A stretch of 42,130 nt of DNA from a virus (Duplodnaviria > Heunggongvirae > Uroviricota > Caudoviricetes), in IMG/VR virus record IMGVR_UViG_2917398303_000001; one strand, 5' to 3'. Positions 1,369 to 15,924 of the stretch are shown one piece after another. Every line of letters begins with the position of its first letter. The stretch's first letter is position 1. The translations under genes and the position numbers were made by a program. The notes below the pieces were generated by a model, which saw only the letters and a list, made by a program, of their open reading frames with translations, was not told the DNA's origin and made no database searches.

Positions 1369-1444
1369 GCCGATATAGCTCAGTTGGTAGAGCAGCGCAT
1401 TCGTAATGCGAAGGTCGTAGGTTCGACTCCTATTATCGGCACCA
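1369..1444 (+). tRNA. thrW: tRNA-Thr (anticodon CGU), prophage integration target
   Basis: 76-nt sequence GCCGATATAGCTCAGTTGG...GGTTCGACTCCTATTATCGGCACCA with D-loop, anticodon loop containing CGT, T-loop GGTTCGA and 3' CCA; integrase gene starts 15 nt downstream. Confidence 0.9.
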
Positions 1445-5410: not shown

Positions 5411-6192
5411 GCTGCCACCTTCTGCTCAGTGGCTTTTTGTTTCAGGAATCCAAGAGCTTTCACTGCTTCGGCCTGTGTCAATTCTGACGATGCACGAATG
5501 TCGCGGCGAAATATCTGGGAACAGAGCGGCAATAAGTCGCCATCCCATGTTTTATCCAGGGCGATCAGCAGAGTGTTAATCTCCTGCATGGTTTCATCGT
5601 TAACCGGAGTGATGTCGCGTTCCGGCTGACGTTCTGCAGTGTATGCGGTATTTTCGACAATGCGCTCGGCTTCATCCTTGTCATAGATACCCGCAAATCC
5701 GAAGGCCAGACGGGCACACTGAATCATGGCTTTATGCCGTAACATCCGTTTGGGATGCGACTGCCACGGCCCCGTGATTTCTCTGCCTTCGCGGGTTTTG
5801 AATGGTTCGCGGCGGCATTCATCCATCCACTCGGTAACGCAGATCGGATGATTACGGTCCTTGCGGTAAATCCGGCATGTACAGAATTCGTTGTCCTGCT
5901 CAAAGTCCATGCCATCAAACTGCTGGTTTTCATTGATGATGCGGGACCAGCCATCAACGCCCACCACCGGAACGATGCCGTTCTGCTTATCAGGAAAGGC
6001 GTAAATTTCTTTCGTCCACGGATTAAGACCGTACTGGTTGGCGACGATCAGCAATGCGATGAACTGCGCATCGCTGGCATCACCTTTAAATGCCGTCTGG
6101 CGAAGAGTGGTGATCAGTTCCTGTGGGTCGACAGAATCCATGCCGACACGTTCAGCCAGCTTCCCTGCCAGCGTTGCGAGTGCAGTACTCAT
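5407..6192 (-). CDS. bet: Red beta single-strand annealing protein
   Basis: 261-aa ORF matching lambda Bet ([72 protein letters not shown]...); overlaps the exo start. Confidence 0.97.
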
Positions 6193-6197
6193 TCGTT

Positions 6198-6494
6198 TTA
6201 TACCTCTGAATCAATATCAACCTGGTGGTGAGCAATGGTTTCAACCAAGTACCGGATGTGTTCTGCCATGCGCTCCTGAAACTCAACATCGTCATCAAAT
6301 GCACGAGAAATGGCTTTTTTGCTGACCCCGTGGCGTTGCAAATGATCGATGCATAGCGATTCAAACAGGTGCTGGGGCAGGCCTTTTTCCATGTCGTCTG
6401 CCAGTTCTGCCTCTTTCTCTTCACGGGCGATCTGCTGGTAGTGACGCGCCCAGCTCTGAGCCTCAAGACGATCCTGAATGTAATAAGCGTTCAT
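6198..6494 (-). CDS. gam: Gam, RecBCD inhibitor (98-aa form)
   Basis: [59 protein letters not shown]... matches lambda Gam. Confidence 0.93.
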
Positions 6495-6569
6495 GGCTGA
6501 ACTCCTGAAAATGGCTGTGAAAATATCGCCCGCGAAATGCCAGGCTGATTAGGAAAACAGGAAAGGGGA

Positions 6570-6860
6570 TTAGTGATTCAGGCCGTTACCGCGTCCGTCG
6601 AGAAAAACTTCCACGAGCAAATCACGGGTATAAGTGCGCTCGATGCCGCGATGCAGATAAAGCCGTCCGCGTAAATTAGCTGAGGCAGTCCAGGTACCAT
6701 CTTTGTGTTTGACCAGCATTCCTGGCATGACCGCACCGCGATTAACGGTCTGCGTTCCGTAATGTTGATGAACCATAAAAACTCCTGCCCGTAAGCTGGG
6801 CTGCTGAACATATAGAGACTTCTGCGCGTATTCAGGCGGTGGATGGCCGCCGGTTGTCAT
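6570..6860 (-). CDS. hypothetical early-left protein (96 aa)
   Basis: ATG-initiated ORF with RBS, first gene downstream of the putative leftward early control region; occupies the kil/cIII position of lambda but has no recognisable similarity. Confidence 0.45.
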
Positions 6861-7221
6861 AACTAAGCCGCCTCGTTGAAGCGACTGAGGTATGAAGTGT
6901 TGAGTTGAGTTGATTTCAGCTGGTCACACCGACGTTCACGCGTCCGCTTCACCCCTCGCACTCCCCGGAGCCTGCTGAAATTCAAGCTGCGGATCTAAGC
7001 GGTCATCGCAACGGTGAATCAGGTGGTTGCCGTATCGTTGTGTTGTTGCGATATGGTGATAATAGCTATTGCTATTGGTGATATCAATACTTATTGCTAT
7101 TGGTTGATGTGTTTTGATATTAAATGTTTGATAGCAAAAAGAATTAATTTTGTGACTTGCATTGCACAGCAATAACTGAAGCGAGGTTGTGGTGTTTTTT
7201 AGGACGATATGCGTGATGAGG
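6861..7221. promoter_or_regulatory. noncoding early-left control region with repeated TATTGCTATTGG motifs (candidate OL/pL)
   Basis: About 360 bp with no plausible ORF; direct repeats ATTGCTATTGG at about 7066 and 7093, with related TTGCTATTG motifs recurring in the cI-cro intergenic region. Confidence 0.35.
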
Positions 7222-7256
7222 GGAGGCAAAAGAAAACCCGGCACGGAGGCCGGGTT
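7222..7256 (-). terminator. intrinsic terminator closing the cI-proximal module
   Basis: 8-bp stem AACCCGGC / GCCGGGTT (7235-7242 and 7249-7256) with a 6-nt loop, followed on the minus strand by UUUCUUUUG; stem starts at the stop codon of the 7255..7638 gene. Confidence 0.65.
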
Positions 7257-7638
7257 AACTTTTATCTTTTCTACTGGCAGCAGGGAATAATCCCCTGATA
7301 ACACCAAGAAAAGCAGCGAATACATTAAGAGTAACAGCTGTTGTTACAGCCAAAACTACCTTATCGGAAAAAACCTTTATCCCAATGATAGAAAACCAGC
7401 CTTGAAAGAAAAGAAACAAAGCCCATCCGTAAAGTGATTTTTTTACGACACGGTACGCTTTTTCCGCCAATATCTCACGAAGTTGCCTGTTTGACTTGGC
7501 GTCTGCCGCTTTTTGAGCATTGAGGTCGTCACCTCTGGATATTCTTTCTGTAATTGGCGGCTCATCTTCGGCACTTGATACTGTCGATGAGCCTACATTT
7601 GTGCCACTGGGTATAGATATGCTATCAAACGACTTCAT
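7255..7638 (-). CDS. small membrane protein, candidate toxin/effector (PanT-like)
   Basis: 127-aa ORF whose ATG overlaps the stop of the upstream gene (TAATG); hydrophilic N-terminal 70 aa, then two predicted TM helices (LYGWALFLFFQGWFSIIGIKVF; VVLAVTTAVTLNVFAAFLGVIRGLF); AT-rich codon usage. Confidence 0.5.
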   Translation of the reverse strand: MKSFDSISIPSGTNVGSSTVSSAEDEPPITERISRGDDLNAQKAADAKSNRQLREILAEKAYRVVKKSLYGWALFLFFQGWFSIIGIKVFSDKVVLAVTTAVTLNVFAAFLGVIRGLFPAASRKDKS

Positions 7639-8108
7639 TAGTGAATATGCTTCGCCATATCCTCATGAGAAATGGGGCCACCATCTGCACTTCCCTTGCT
7701 CCATGCTGTACCAGGCGCATGTGTTAAGTTAGACAGTTCGGTACCTGAAAATTTCCCATATACTTCGATGATTTTATTGATAAGAGCTTGAGCTTCTTGA
7801 TCATCTTTTTGAATTGTAGGGGTGATTCTTTTTAATTCGCCATCACACTCTAAGATGACGCTAATCTTTTCAGTGATTTCGTTTGCTCCATACTTCTTCA
7901 ACATATGATAAAGCGGTGGAATAACAGGCCCGAATTTCCATCTGGCGAAAAGATCATCAAAAAGCGGTGTGTTGTCGCGTAACTTTAAATGCCATGATTG
8001 AGTATAAAAAAGAAGCTTCTGGAGCTTCATTGGAGTCAGATTCTTTAACTTACCCTTTAAAGCCTTTTCAATGAAGGCATTAGCAACCGCTGCAGCTGAG
8101 TAAGCCAT
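7638..8108 (-). CDS. Panacea-domain (DUF4065) protein, candidate antitoxin (PanA/SocA-like)
   Basis: 156-aa ORF with strong RBS AAGGAGGG; N-terminal region AAAVANAFIEKA...LKNLTPMKLQKLLFYTQSWHLKL...GPVIPPLY matches the conserved core of DUF4065/Panacea proteins as I recall it. Confidence 0.55.
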   Translation of the reverse strand: MAYSAAAVANAFIEKALKGKLKNLTPMKLQKLLFYTQSWHLKLRDNTPLFDDLFARWKFGPVIPPLYHMLKKYGANEITEKISVILECDGELKRITPTIQKDDQEAQALINKIIEVYGKFSGTELSNLTHAPGTAWSKGSADGGPISHEDMAKHIH

Positions 8109-8397
8109 GTTATGCCCTCCTTAACTGTATAAATAACCAGTTGTATAATGCTTGCATTTTACCTGAAAGGTAACTGTTAGTACATATTAATAACTTTATG
8201 TACATCCGTCACTTACAAAACGATAGGATTTATTGCTGTTTATCCTTATTAGGTAGCATATTATTCTGGTAAGGGGTGCTGGAAAGTTGTTTACTATATA
8301 TAGTGGTAGGGTGGCATAATTCAATACAACATAAAGTGTCATGGCGAGAGCTCTGGCTATCGCCATCATTAATATTGTCTATTATGTAGACATGGGA

Positions 8398-9090
8398 TTA
8401 ACCATGTTTCCTATACGTCTGCGGCATGCTCCCAATAACCTTACCGAAGATGAATACCCGGTTCATCTCGTCTTTCTCGATCGGGTCCCACGGTGAGTAG
8501 CTTTTGTTATCAGAGATGACCAGTAGCTTATCCTTCATCATTTGCAGGCGCTTTACATGGGCTGTGTCGTCATACAGAAACGCATAGATACCATCACCGT
8601 CGAAAGATTTAACCGTGATATCAACGAACAGCAGATCACCTGGTTCGATAGTTCCTGACATGCTGTCACCACGCACGTTAATGATGCGGATATTTTCCGC
8701 CTTCCTGCCATCGAACATGTGACGAGCATCGTCAAACGAGTACTCAACCGAGCGTAGGACTTCTACAAACTCACGGTTGATGACACCCGGCCCGGCACTG
8801 ACTTCTATATCAAGAACGTCAATCTTGAAGTATTTGGAATGGTTGACAGCAGGCTTCCCTGATTGTTGACCGTCATTTCTCATCGGGCCTATGCCTGATG
8901 AGAGCCACTCTGTTCGAACACCCAATGCATTAGCTATTTCAACAATTTTTGTTGAGCCGCGCGCGTTGCCGCTTGTCAGTCTCCAGATTGTGGGTTGAGC
9001 TACGCCAGACGCCTTTGCAAGAGCGCCTTGAGACATTCCAGATTGTTCCATCGCTAGGTTTAAGCGATCAGCAAGAGTTTCTTTTTTCAT
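8398..9090 (-). CDS. cI: CI-like prophage repressor (HTH plus S24 LexA-like peptidase domain)
   Basis: 231 aa from ATG at 9090 (the track ORF begins at an upstream TTG); N-terminal HTH (MSQGALAKASGVAQPTIWRL) and C-terminal S24 autopeptidase motifs (NVRGDSMSGTIEPGDLLFVD ... HVKRL); divergently oriented to cro. Confidence 0.85.
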   Translation of the reverse strand: MKKETLADRLNLAMEQSGMSQGALAKASGVAQPTIWRLTSGNARGSTKIVEIANALGVRTEWLSSGIGPMRNDGQQSGKPAVNHSKYFKIDVLDIEVSAGPGVINREFVEVLRSVEYSFDDARHMFDGRKAENIRIINVRGDSMSGTIEPGDLLFVDITVKSFDGDGIYAFLYDDTAHVKRLQMMKDKLLVISDNKSYSPWDPIEKDEMNRVFIFGKVIGSMPQTYRKHG

Positions 9091-9197
9091 AAGTTTTAAT
9101 TTATACGCTTGCGTATTGATGGTCAAAACACGTTTTGCTATTGCTTGGATTAATACGCATTGCTATTATCCATTCATTGCAATACCAATAGGAATTG
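9091..9197. promoter_or_regulatory. cI-cro intergenic operator/promoter region (OR-like)
   Basis: Divergent-gene spacer containing the perfect palindrome ATACGC-TT-GCGTAT (9103-9116), a related half-site AATACGCATTGC, and TTGCTATTG motifs. Confidence 0.6.
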
Positions 9198-9428
9198 ATG
9201 ATGACAAATCAAACCATTCAACTCGCAATCAGTATTACAGGTAGTCAAAAACGACTGGCAGATCTATGCGGTGTAGCCCAACCCACTGTTTGGCGTTGGC
9301 TACACGGTGGCGGAATTGATGCCCGCTATGTAATGAAAATTGTCTCAGCCACTGGTGGAAAGATTAAACCAGCAGATATTCGTCCCGACCTCGCACCATT
9401 GTTTAACGCGAGTAATTCTGCCGCCTAA
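9198..9428 (+). CDS. cro: Cro/YdaS-like HTH regulator
   Basis: About 76-aa ORF divergent from cI; HTH QKRLADLCGVAQPTVWRWL; ATG at 9198 follows AGGA. Confidence 0.75.
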   Translation: MMTNQTIQLAISITGSQKRLADLCGVAQPTVWRWLHGGGIDARYVMKIVSATGGKIKPADIRPDLAPLFNASNSAA

Positions 9429-9452
9429 ACTGCGGCGTTAACTGATAAGGCA

Positions 9453-9998
9453 ATGACTATGCAACCACTTACATACCAACAGACTAGCGGATTTAGCCCG
9501 ACTGCGGTGATAAATCGTTCTCAAACAAAACAGGTGCCAGGCCACGAAAAAATCCGTGATGCCGTTCGCGCCTGGTCGGCTGCAGATAATCAGGATGTTG
9601 TTGCCGCACTCATTGTGAATGAGTATCGGGAGCAGGGCGGCGGCACCATCGATTTCCCTGATGATGTCAGCCGTGCACGCCAGAAGCTGTTCCGCTTCCT
9701 CGATAACAAATTCGATTCTGAAAAATACCGAAATAACGTGCGTGAACTGACCCCGGCAATTCTGGCGGTACTACCGCTGGAATATCGCGGTTACCTGGTT
9801 AAGCAGGATAGCTTCATGGCTCGGCTGGCTGAAATGGAAAAGGAACTCAGTGAAGCAAAACAGGCTGTCATTCTCAACGCGCCACGCCACCAGAAACTGA
9901 AGGAGATGAGTGAAGGCATTGTGTCGATGTTTCGTGTGGACCCGGATCTGGCTGGTCCATTGATGGCGATGGTCACCACCATGCTGGGGGCGATATGA
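9453..9998 (+). CDS. YdaT-family regulator (likely CII functional analogue)
   Basis: 181-aa ORF directly after cro where lambda has cII; recalled resemblance to Rac YdaT-type proteins (EYREQGGG ... PAILAVLP). Confidence 0.45.
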   Translation: MTMQPLTYQQTSGFSPTAVINRSQTKQVPGHEKIRDAVRAWSAADNQDVVAALIVNEYREQGGGTIDFPDDVSRARQKLFRFLDNKFDSEKYRNNVRELTPAILAVLPLEYRGYLVKQDSFMARLAEMEKELSEAKQAVILNAPRHQKLKEMSEGIVSMFRVDPDLAGPLMAMVTTMLGAI

Positions 9999-10084
9999 CA
10001 GGTTCAGAAATGGCGAAAGCCGGTCTGCTGGAACAGAACCGACTTTCAGGTGCAAATCGTAACGCACTCATTGCGGGAGGAATT

Positions 10085-15035: not shown

Positions 15036-15171
15036 CCGATTACCGGATACTGAAGAATTACGCCAAAACACTGGCAGAGACAATTGTATGAAGCCAGAGA
15101 TAACGATCGGTTGATGCCGTTTTATTGTTTTTTGCTGCCAATTGGCGTGCTGGTGTAAATGGAGAGCGAGA

Positions 15172-15924
15172 ATGAATCTTGAGGCCTTACCAAAATATTA
15201 CTCCCCAAAATCTCCAAAATTGAGCGATGACGCACCGGCGACAGACTCAGGTGGTTTATCAATTACGGATGTGATGGCTGCGCAGGGGATGGTGCAGTCG
15301 AAAGCACCGCTTGGGTTTGCCTTATTCCTGGCAAAAGTTGGTGTTCAGGACCCTCAGTTTGCGATTGAAGGTCTGCTCAATTACGCGATGGCACTGGATA
15401 ACCCGACATTGAATAAATTGAGTGCAGAAACACGGTTACAGATTATTCCTTACCTCGTGAATTTTGCCTTTGCTGATTATTCCAGGTCTGCGGCAAGTAA
15501 GGCTCGCTGTGAGCATTGTGCTGGTACGGGATTTCATAATGTATTGCGCGAAGTGGTGAAACATTCCAGAAGCGGGGAATCCGTTATCAAGGAAGAGTGG
15601 GTGAAGGAACTATGTCAGCATTGTCATGGTAAGGGAGAAGTCAGCACAGCGTGCAGAGGGTGTAAGGGTAAAGGTATTGTCCTGGATGAAAAAAGGACCC
15701 GGCTTCATGGCACGCCTGTTTATAAGATTTGTGGGCGTTGCAATGGAAACCGGTTTAGCCGTTTACCAACCACACTGGCGCGGCATCATGTCCAGAAACT
15801 GGTACCGGACCTGACGGATTATCAGTGGTACAAGGGGTATGCTGATGTTATTGATAAACTGGTTACAAAGTGCTGGCAGGAAGAAGCATATGCAGAAGCA
15901 CAGTTGAGAAAAGTGACAAGATAA
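15172..15924 (+). CDS. late-gene antiterminator Q (DLP12/phage 82 type)
   Basis: 250 aa from ATG at 15172; multiple CxxC zinc motifs (CEHCAGTG, CQHCHGKG, CRGCKGKG, CGRCNGN); followed by a promoter and early terminator as expected for PR'/qut/tR'. Confidence 0.8.
   Translation: MNLEALPKYYSPKSPKLSDDAPATDSGGLSITDVMAAQGMVQSKAPLGFALFLAKVGVQDPQFAIEGLLNYAMALDNPTLNKLSAETRLQIIPYLVNFAFADYSRSAASKARCEHCAGTGFHNVLREVVKHSRSGESVIKEEWVKELCQHCHGKGEVSTACRGCKGKGIVLDEKRTRLHGTPVYKICGRCNGNRFSRLPTTLARHHVQKLVPDLTDYQWYKGYADVIDKLVTKCWQEEAYAEAQLRKVTR

Follow-up and report, generated by a model that had tools for sequence, protein, structure and literature searches.

The stretch of DNA analysed here, called the window below, is 42,130 nucleotides (nt) long (IMG/VR record IMGVR_UViG_2917398303_000001) and is a lambdoid prophage of the Bievrevirus type. 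Its minus strand carries int, a Dam-type methylase gene, exo, bet, gam and kil, then a noncoding region at 6861-7254 and, beyond it, the genes for a 127-amino-acid (aa) protein and a SocA/Panacea antitoxin (7255-8108) and an S24-type cI repressor gene (8398-9090), whose product contains HTH (HTH_3) and Peptidase_S24 domains according to Pfam. The plus strand holds a YdaS-like cro, a YdaT/CII-like gene, O, P, nin-type genes, a Q-like antiterminator gene, lysis genes and a lambda-type terminase. The noncoding region is the subject of this account. We consider it probable that it is the lambdoid left operator and promoter (OL/pL) controlling the early-left operon, and that this operon is N-independent since a terminator is absent and nothing replaces N.

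A first-pass annotation, made from the letters of the window, had noted direct repeats at about 7066 and 7093 and had proposed that they belong to operator sets at OL and at the right operator (OR). Both points hold. The sequence ATTGCTATTGG stands at 7068-7078 and 7093-7103, close to the positions first given, and exact TTGCTATTG occurs three times in 42 kb (7069, 7094 and 9135) against 0.47 expected, a number reached in none of 100 shuffles; such motifs recur nowhere but between cI and cro. The repeats are parts of 16-base-pair (bp) operators of the form AATA-SS-N4-SS-TATT (AATAGC-N4-GCTATT type). A search for this shared pattern, AATASSNNNNSSTATT, with at most one mismatch returned seven matches in the window where 0.84 were expected (0 of 100 shuffles), and six of the seven lie in two clusters flanking the repressor gene, namely a pair at OL (7061-7101) and a set of four at OR (9102-9196).

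The two OL sites overlap a strong promoter of the sigma-70 type, pL (Table 1), which points away from cI and towards the recombination genes. Its predicted start, an A at 7052 on the minus strand, is supported by a comparison with 80 related loci from viral contigs, which fall into three immunity classes with differing operators, because homology across the immunity types begins exactly there: two classes share sequence from the predicted +1 onward, ATCGCAAC, and the third from 35 nt further on. By analogy with lambda, CI would bind the 16-bp operators and repress pL. The match to the IHF consensus at 7121-7133 is suggestive of an IHF site, such as lambda pL has upstream; exact matches to the consensus WATCAANNNNTTR number three in the window against 1.6 expected, and this one is statistically unremarkable. 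Like the cI mRNA predicted from the pRM candidate in Table 1, the lambda cI mRNA made from pRM is leaderless.

About 390 bp without a credible open reading frame (ORF) had been described between these landmarks, and this is borne out: no ORF of at least 30 aa touching 6861-7254 has a match in Pfam or PHROGs. The terminator proposed for the cI-side module is also present at the flank, as a hairpin at 7256-7235 (8 pairs, 6 of them GC, loop of 6) with the minus-strand tail TTCTTTTG. This hairpin is terminator-like on the plus strand too, and the weak Rfam matches at 7228-7256 are all to terminator hairpins of unrelated small RNAs (sRNAs). A palindrome between the terminator and OL (7161-7173) may be bound by a protein or fold into a small hairpin; in relatives it reads ATCGC-ATA-GCGAT, from which the window differs by symmetric changes in both arms.

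At the other end, the absence of a credible gene stands, and the untranslated stretch probably reaches further, to 6777. The longest ORF for kil encodes 96 aa from an ATG at 6860 (6570-6860, minus strand). The true start is most likely the ATG at 6776, giving 68 aa, which is preferred because ATG 6860 lies in the basal helix of a conserved hairpin (hairpin 1, below) and ATG 6776 is preceded by a Shine-Dalgarno sequence, AGGAG at a distance of 5 nt; RefSeq likewise gives 68 aa in phage 4A7. A leader peptide from ATG 6860 (MTTGGHPPP) was rejected, given that its frame and length vary among phages and the RNA hairpins are kept.

With kil starting at 6776 the pL transcript would have a leader of about 276 nt, probably untranslated, which is a mosaic of three parts. 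Its 5' end, AUCGCAACAACACAACGAUACGG, resembles the pL transcript 5' ends of phi80, HK225, HK639, CobraSix, S9-5 and phiEt88, and phages with similar 5' ends use N, put or an unknown system. The segment of about 130 nt that follows is specific to the present group: searches of the phage collection returned no homologue outside this group of E. coli phages, and 16 sequenced phage records there carry the same leader, a sign that phages with it are viable. Among 5426 complete E. coli genomes, 2210 (41%) contain the segment at 95% identity or more.

Folding of the minus-strand transcript gave a divided answer to the question, left by the first-pass annotation, of whether the region is simply a long 5' untranslated region (UTR) without structure. 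Over its first 148 nt the transcript is no more stably folded than shuffled sequence (z = -0.29), nor is a stable fold seen over 195 nt (z = -0.82), whereas the 3' part holds a conserved hairpin structure. RNAalifold found no compensatory pairs in the group-specific segment among 26 sequences, which are too similar to one another. The C/A-rich part of the leader contains a 5-nt tandem duplication of CAACT at 6905-6914 that is apparently absent from all but one of the 2210 leader-carrying genomes, in a tally based on 30 sampled matches of which one aligns across it and the others stop at query position 117.

The third part of the leader is a module of two hairpins, and the conserved RNA structure at 6895-6835 is real. 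It consists of a CAUAC...GUAUG basal helix, an apical stem and the loop UUCAnnGAG, followed by GGCGG-CCAUCCA-CCGCC. The fold of 6826-6900 has z = -3.66, and all versions of the module adopt the same fold, with z between -1.9 and -4.5. When nine sequences were aligned, 96.8% of cells were paired and seven pairs were changed on both sides, which none of 500 shuffles reached, and the covariation score was 0.366 against at most 0.10 for slid-partner controls. Model R2 of the module scores 90.1 bits at 6831-6896 on the minus strand, and there is one copy per phage. The module is common to phi80, HK225, HK639, CobraSix, S9-5, KO-TP1 and ENT1, with hairpin 1 alone in HK022. A T-run comes after hairpin 2 in CobraSix and in HK639, where the hairpin is annotated as a terminator; an older phi80 record marks a t-L1 signal that begins inside the module. 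The role of the module may lie in processing, in stability or in controlling how much of the toxic Kil is made. Lambdoid phages of Escherichia, Enterobacter, Salmonella and Klebsiella carry the module, which is not in Rfam.

In agreement with the first-pass annotation, the ORF list, Pfam and PHROGs revealed no N homologue between cI and the recombination genes, and the annotations of sister phages list none; for the hand-annotated Perceval, the part of the record from int to the right end lists Q and no N. N proteins diverge fast, which makes sequence searches alone weak; more telling is that hardly any space is left for such an ORF, the only one between pL and kil being a 40-codon frame with a TTG start (6863-6985, minus strand). 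Paired nut sites in both early transcripts were not found either. The pR operon contains no second copy of any leader element, and with just 24 nt between cro and the following gene, ydaT, a nutR or putR site does not fit there; only a poor boxA-like CGCTTAGA was seen by eye.

The key difference from related phages lies directly before the hairpin module. In all relatives with N or put, and everywhere outside the window's own phage group, hairpin 1 comes right after a strong intrinsic terminator, a GC-rich stem-loop ending in a run of 5-7 T (phi80, HK225, HK639, CobraSix, S9-5, KO-TP1, ENT1 and HK022); it follows the N gene, or genes downstream of put, and is annotated as tL1A in phi80 and as 'terminator' in HK639. 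This terminator is absent from the window and from its 80 viral-contig relatives, which have CAACACTT at this place and no T-run hairpin. From 7052 to 4740 the minus strand contains no strong terminator-like site and two weak ones (6627-6611 and 6545-6528), and only weak ones are listed between pR and Q. N-independence is proposed because the lineage is without both the antiterminator and its first target terminator. The first-pass annotation had suggested that early-left transcription may use either N-independent antitermination or none, and it is the latter option that fits best.

We infer repressor binding, the transcription start and read-through without antitermination, which together would work as follows. 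In the lysogen, the S24-type CI would shut off pL from OL1 and OL2, in the manner of lambda. After induction, RNA polymerase would start at about 7052 and the transcript would cross the untranslated leader straight into kil-gam-bet-exo without an antitermination device. Two terminator-like hairpins, at 4669-4647 and 3708-3690, probably limit read-through towards xis and int. The position of the former is presumably that of lambda tL3, and the exo-end region is about 98% identical to lambda over roughly 170 nt.

An architecture of pL, leader and kil without N is common. A genome scan by Kil found it, with other leaders, in Citrobacter, Kluyvera, Enterobacter and Silvania genomes, and two of these enterobacterial prophages share the operator type of the window. 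In L092, L095, L096, L097 and L098 (around 2250-2500 in each), which are Citrobacter and Kluyvera prophages plus one metagenome-derived contig (L097), pL is followed by a different leader of 170-190 nt and then kil, again without N; these leaders contain conserved hairpins, CGCCAGCCUGGCG and a CCGUGA...UCACGG stem with compensatory changes. Shorter leaders of about 80 nt occur in Silvania and Enterobacter (L093, L094).

An arginine-rich frame in the leader (GTG AAG CGG ACG CGT GAA CGT CGG; MKRTRERR..., within 6863-6985) might be taken for a mini N-like antiterminator, or the remnant of one, acting on a hairpin in the leader. This frame sits exactly where lambda and phi80 have N, has GGAG 7 nt upstream of the GTG and is open into kil in most relatives, and the kil of Perceval is annotated at 139 aa, extended upstream of the GTG. 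By eye its KRTRERRCDQ can be likened to lambda N, whose motif we take to be TRRRERRAEKQ, and GAACGTCG is shared in the frame. Nevertheless we hold this reading to be very improbable. The CAACT duplication in the window and a 1-nt insertion at another locus both shift the frame, and it has 7 variable sites at first, 3 at second and 5 at third codon positions, whereas kil has 21 of its 23 at the third. Neither Pfam nor PHROGs matches it, and among 5.8 billion proteins only three predictions exceed the part common to the 96-aa Kil ORF and none with a different C-terminus has the arginine-rich stretch. Thirteen other ORFs of the window, overlapping and non-genic (none is an identified gene), are equally rich in arginine. 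The downstream part of the frame crosses the RNA hairpins and its peptide reading is not kept between phages, and a 28-aa peptide would be without the parts of N that bind NusA and the polymerase. The 40-codon ORF was thus rejected as a gene on its indels, its lack of third-position bias, the want of a protein family and the arginine-rich background. We give next to no credence to the suggestion, also made in the first-pass annotation, of a put-like RNA as in HK022, that is, to the leader being a diverged member of the HK022/HK639 put family. It does lie directly after pL in a phage without N, and the short string ACGGCAA was seen by eye in both leader and put. However, a covariance model (R1) from seven RNAs (HK022 putL and putR, HK639 putL, and homologues in CobraSix, S9-5, phiEt88 and UPF_BP1) recovers its controls (95.1 bits for HK022 putL, 90.9 for HK639 putL, 48.8 for HK022 putR) and finds nothing in the leader (6777-7052) at E ≤ 10 with filters off. 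The two-stem fold of put, an RNA of about 70 nt, is not predicted for it, and Rfam gave no match above threshold in 6000-10000 and, at E ≤ 10 in 6760-7270, only chance and terminator-hairpin matches.

Several observations do weigh against an operon that simply lacks the need for antitermination. Nucleotide diversity (pi) in the 103-nt core of the leader (7017-6915) is 0.021. In the same loci kil, gam, bet and exo have values of 0.048-0.078 at the third position of their codons, and the last three of these genes have 0.013-0.022 at the first and second. The low diversity of the core, together with the identity across 2210 genomes, hints at a function of the leader core. The hairpins at 4669-4647 and 3708-3690 lie upstream of xis and int in a leftward operon without N. 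Moreover, the leader has C-rich, G-poor stretches flanking its G-rich core, and phi80 has an annotated Rho-dependent terminator, tL1B, some 120 nt beyond its copy of the module, so that Rho-dependent termination within the leader or kil may occur. One alternative, to which we assign a small probability, is that the leader and its module form a regulatory 5' UTR that throttles Kil and the Red genes, whether through attenuation by Rho, processing by RNases or control of translation. The first gene, kil, encodes an FtsZ inhibitor; the module is kept with covariation across genera, always upstream of the kil region; its phi80 homologue stands at the start of the 't-L1 regulatory signal terminator'; and the pre-kil leaders of other species differ, yet are also structured. 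Nothing seen points directly to Rho sites, to cleavage by RNase III or to pairing with an sRNA, however, hairpin 2 does not have the T-run with which it serves as a terminator in HK639 and CobraSix, and the Kil Shine-Dalgarno sequence is not obviously sequestered. Such throttling overlaps with N-independence through the missing terminator and does not exclude it. Somewhat less probable still is that the segment at about 7027-6897 is a new cis-acting RNA, unrelated to put, which modifies RNA polymerase or recruits Nus factors so that transcription passes the terminators at 4669-4647 and 3708-3690 on its way to xis and int, or which controls the early-left operon in some other way; the two-hairpin module might belong to such a device as well. 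HK022 putL acts in just this place, directly after the pL +1, and put RNA suppresses terminators by acting in cis on RNA polymerase via the beta' zinc-binding domain (PMC9378689). A single copy is no objection, as HK639 also has put in its left operon only, and both the low polymorphism relative to third codon positions and the very high conservation in E. coli would suit such an RNA, as would terminator-like hairpins between exo and xis/int, the one after exo being identical to that of lambda. Against it stand the fold of the first 148 nt, no better than shuffled, and the RNAalifold helices, which show no compensatory change and in which single substitutions keep pairing in 11 cases and break it in 6 (hand count). 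One immunity class replaces the first 35 nt of the leader, indels independent of frame are tolerated, no homologue of the segment was found outside E. coli phages, and its low diversity could stem from the recent spread of one module by recombination. We retain N-independence through absence of the terminator as the preferred explanation.

Table 1. Features of the early-left control region and related sites. Positions are those of the window unless a locus is named.
Feature	Position	Strand	Remarks
OL1	7061-7076		AATAGC-TATT-GCTATT, perfect palindrome, 0 mismatches; overlaps pL spacer and -10
OL2	7086-7101		AATACTTATTGCTATT; overlaps pL -35
Weak third operator-like site	7128-7143		13/16; by eye; overlaps IHF-consensus match
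OR operator-like sites	9102-9117, 9127-9142, 9152-9167, 9181-9196		Between cI and cro
pL (predicted)	-35 7087-7082; -10 7064-7059	minus	TTGATA, 17-nt spacer, TATTAT; 10/12 matches
pR -10 (candidate)	9164-9169		TATTAT; by eye
pRM (candidate)	9126-9098	minus	TTGACC-17-TAAATT; would give leaderless cI mRNA from ATG 9090
IHF-consensus match	7121-7133	minus	TATCAAACATTTA; about 70-80 bp upstream of pL start
Intrinsic terminator	7228-7256	minus	Ends cI / Panacea-antitoxin / 127-aa operon
Palindrome, 13 bp	7161-7173		ATTGC-ACA-GCAAT; spacer between terminator and OL
pL transcript 5' end (predicted)	7028-7052	minus	AUCGCAACAACACAACGAUACGG; about 25 nt
Group-specific leader segment	6897-7027	minus	About 130 nt; no ORF support, put or Rfam match, or above-chance fold
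Hairpin 1	6857-6895	minus	Base CAUAC/GUAUG, covarying apical stem, loop UUCAACGAG
Hairpin 2	6835-6851	minus	GGCGG-CCAUCCA-CCGCC; no T-run after it in the window
Module copies elsewhere	L085 2502-2561; L084 2482-2541; L086 2502-2562; L087 2372-2431; L003 4439-4490(-)		
kil (FtsZ inhibitor)	6570-6776	minus	First early-left gene; PHROG 294, E = 1e-38
ORF, 40 aa	6863-6985	minus	TTG start; no family match
ORF, 129 aa	6936-7325	minus	Crosses terminator and promoter; no family match
ORF, 53 aa	7014-7175	plus	No family match
ORF, 33 aa	7189-7290	plus	No family match
Terminator-like hairpin after exo	4669-4647	minus	Inside orf60a homologue; identical to lambda
Strong intrinsic-terminator-like site	3708-3690	minus	8 pairs, then TTTTTTATTATT; between orf61-like gene and dksA/traR-type zinc-finger gene
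int	1459-2622	minus	Adjoins tRNA-Thr(CGU)
tRNA-Thr(CGU)	1369-1444		Abuts int; downstream of proA-like aldehyde-dehydrogenase-family ORF, 417 aa
Q-like antiterminator	15142-15924	plus	260 aa

The sequenced phages closest to the window are PhiR30_1, Lambda_4C10, 4A7, 1W, 3W and Perceval (genus Bievrevirus), with about 95-97% identity over the region. The tRNA-Thr next to int points to integration at a thrW-type site, and integration at icd, as in NC-SV and e14, was rejected because the prophage adjoins this tRNA and the proA-like gene. Between cI and OL, in the position of lambda rexAB, the window has the SocA/Panacea-domain antitoxin gene (156 aa, Pfam E = 7e-21) and the gene for the 127-aa protein, which has a hydrophobic C-terminus; sister phages have other genes there, and the insert is likely a toxin-antitoxin or defence insert. 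A gap of about 290 bp without a supported gene separates the Panacea gene from cI (8109-8397) and contains, on the plus strand, a promoter-like TTAACT-17-TATAAT (8121-8149) that would read antisense into cI. Known prophage sRNAs were rejected for the noncoding region on map position: in the papers searched, AgvB and AsxR are placed at the pR' moron site, the Pas sRNAs close to the lysis genes, and svsR is reported at the cI 3' end in the related prophage NC-SV (PMC12803456), so that none maps to the region.

In its layout the region closely follows lambda OL/pL, with a cI-side terminator, tandem operators of 16-17 bp about 25 bp apart on a sigma-70 promoter, sites of the same type at OR, a possible IHF site upstream, a long leader (about 222 nt in lambda, against about 276 nt here) and the Red genes downstream, exo-orf60a of the window being about 98% identical. 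It differs in operator sequence, in having neither an N gene nor the boxA/boxB of nutL, and in that kil directly follows the leader, where lambda has N, sieB, ral, ea10 and cIII before kil; the analogues of cro and cII are of the Rac YdaS/YdaT type, unlike those of lambda. HK022 and HK639 are likewise lambdoid, without N, and open the left operon with a noncoding RNA after pL, which in HK639 is a single put element. HK639 carries both hairpins of the module and HK022 the first. However, the sequence and structure of put are unmatched in the window, and the put phages have retained strong terminators beyond put, the counterpart of which is missing from the window. In phi80, the first 25 nt or so of the pL transcript are similar, and a homologous two-hairpin module and a kil homologue lie downstream, but nutL, a 98-aa N and tL1A stand between pL and the module, where the window has an unrelated noncoding segment of 130 nt instead. 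The lambda nin5 mutant is N-independent since terminators are missing. It is a laboratory deletion, whereas the arrangement in the window is natural, occurring in 41% of complete E. coli genomes and in sequenced phages. As an element, then, the OL/pL region is of an ordinary kind, and its N-less form is undescribed in the literature searched; for the N-less phage LLS, antitermination by a put-type RNA was merely suggested as a possibility (PMC12315714). The new details, namely the corrected kil start and the covarying hairpin module not in Rfam, are modest but solid.

These results supply a control region for a prophage family present in about two in five complete E. coli genomes, where the annotation is blank. 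An early-left operon that runs free of N, nut and put, apparently for simple want of tL1, explains how the toxic kil comes to be directly under repressor control. Gene calls are corrected as well, the kil start being the clearest case. The leader also offers two testable pieces of RNA, the conserved 130-nt core and the covarying two-hairpin motif, which is shared across several genera by lambdoid phages of the N type, the put type and the N-less kind. If it were true that the leader core is an antiterminator, it would represent a second class of polymerase-modifying phage RNA.

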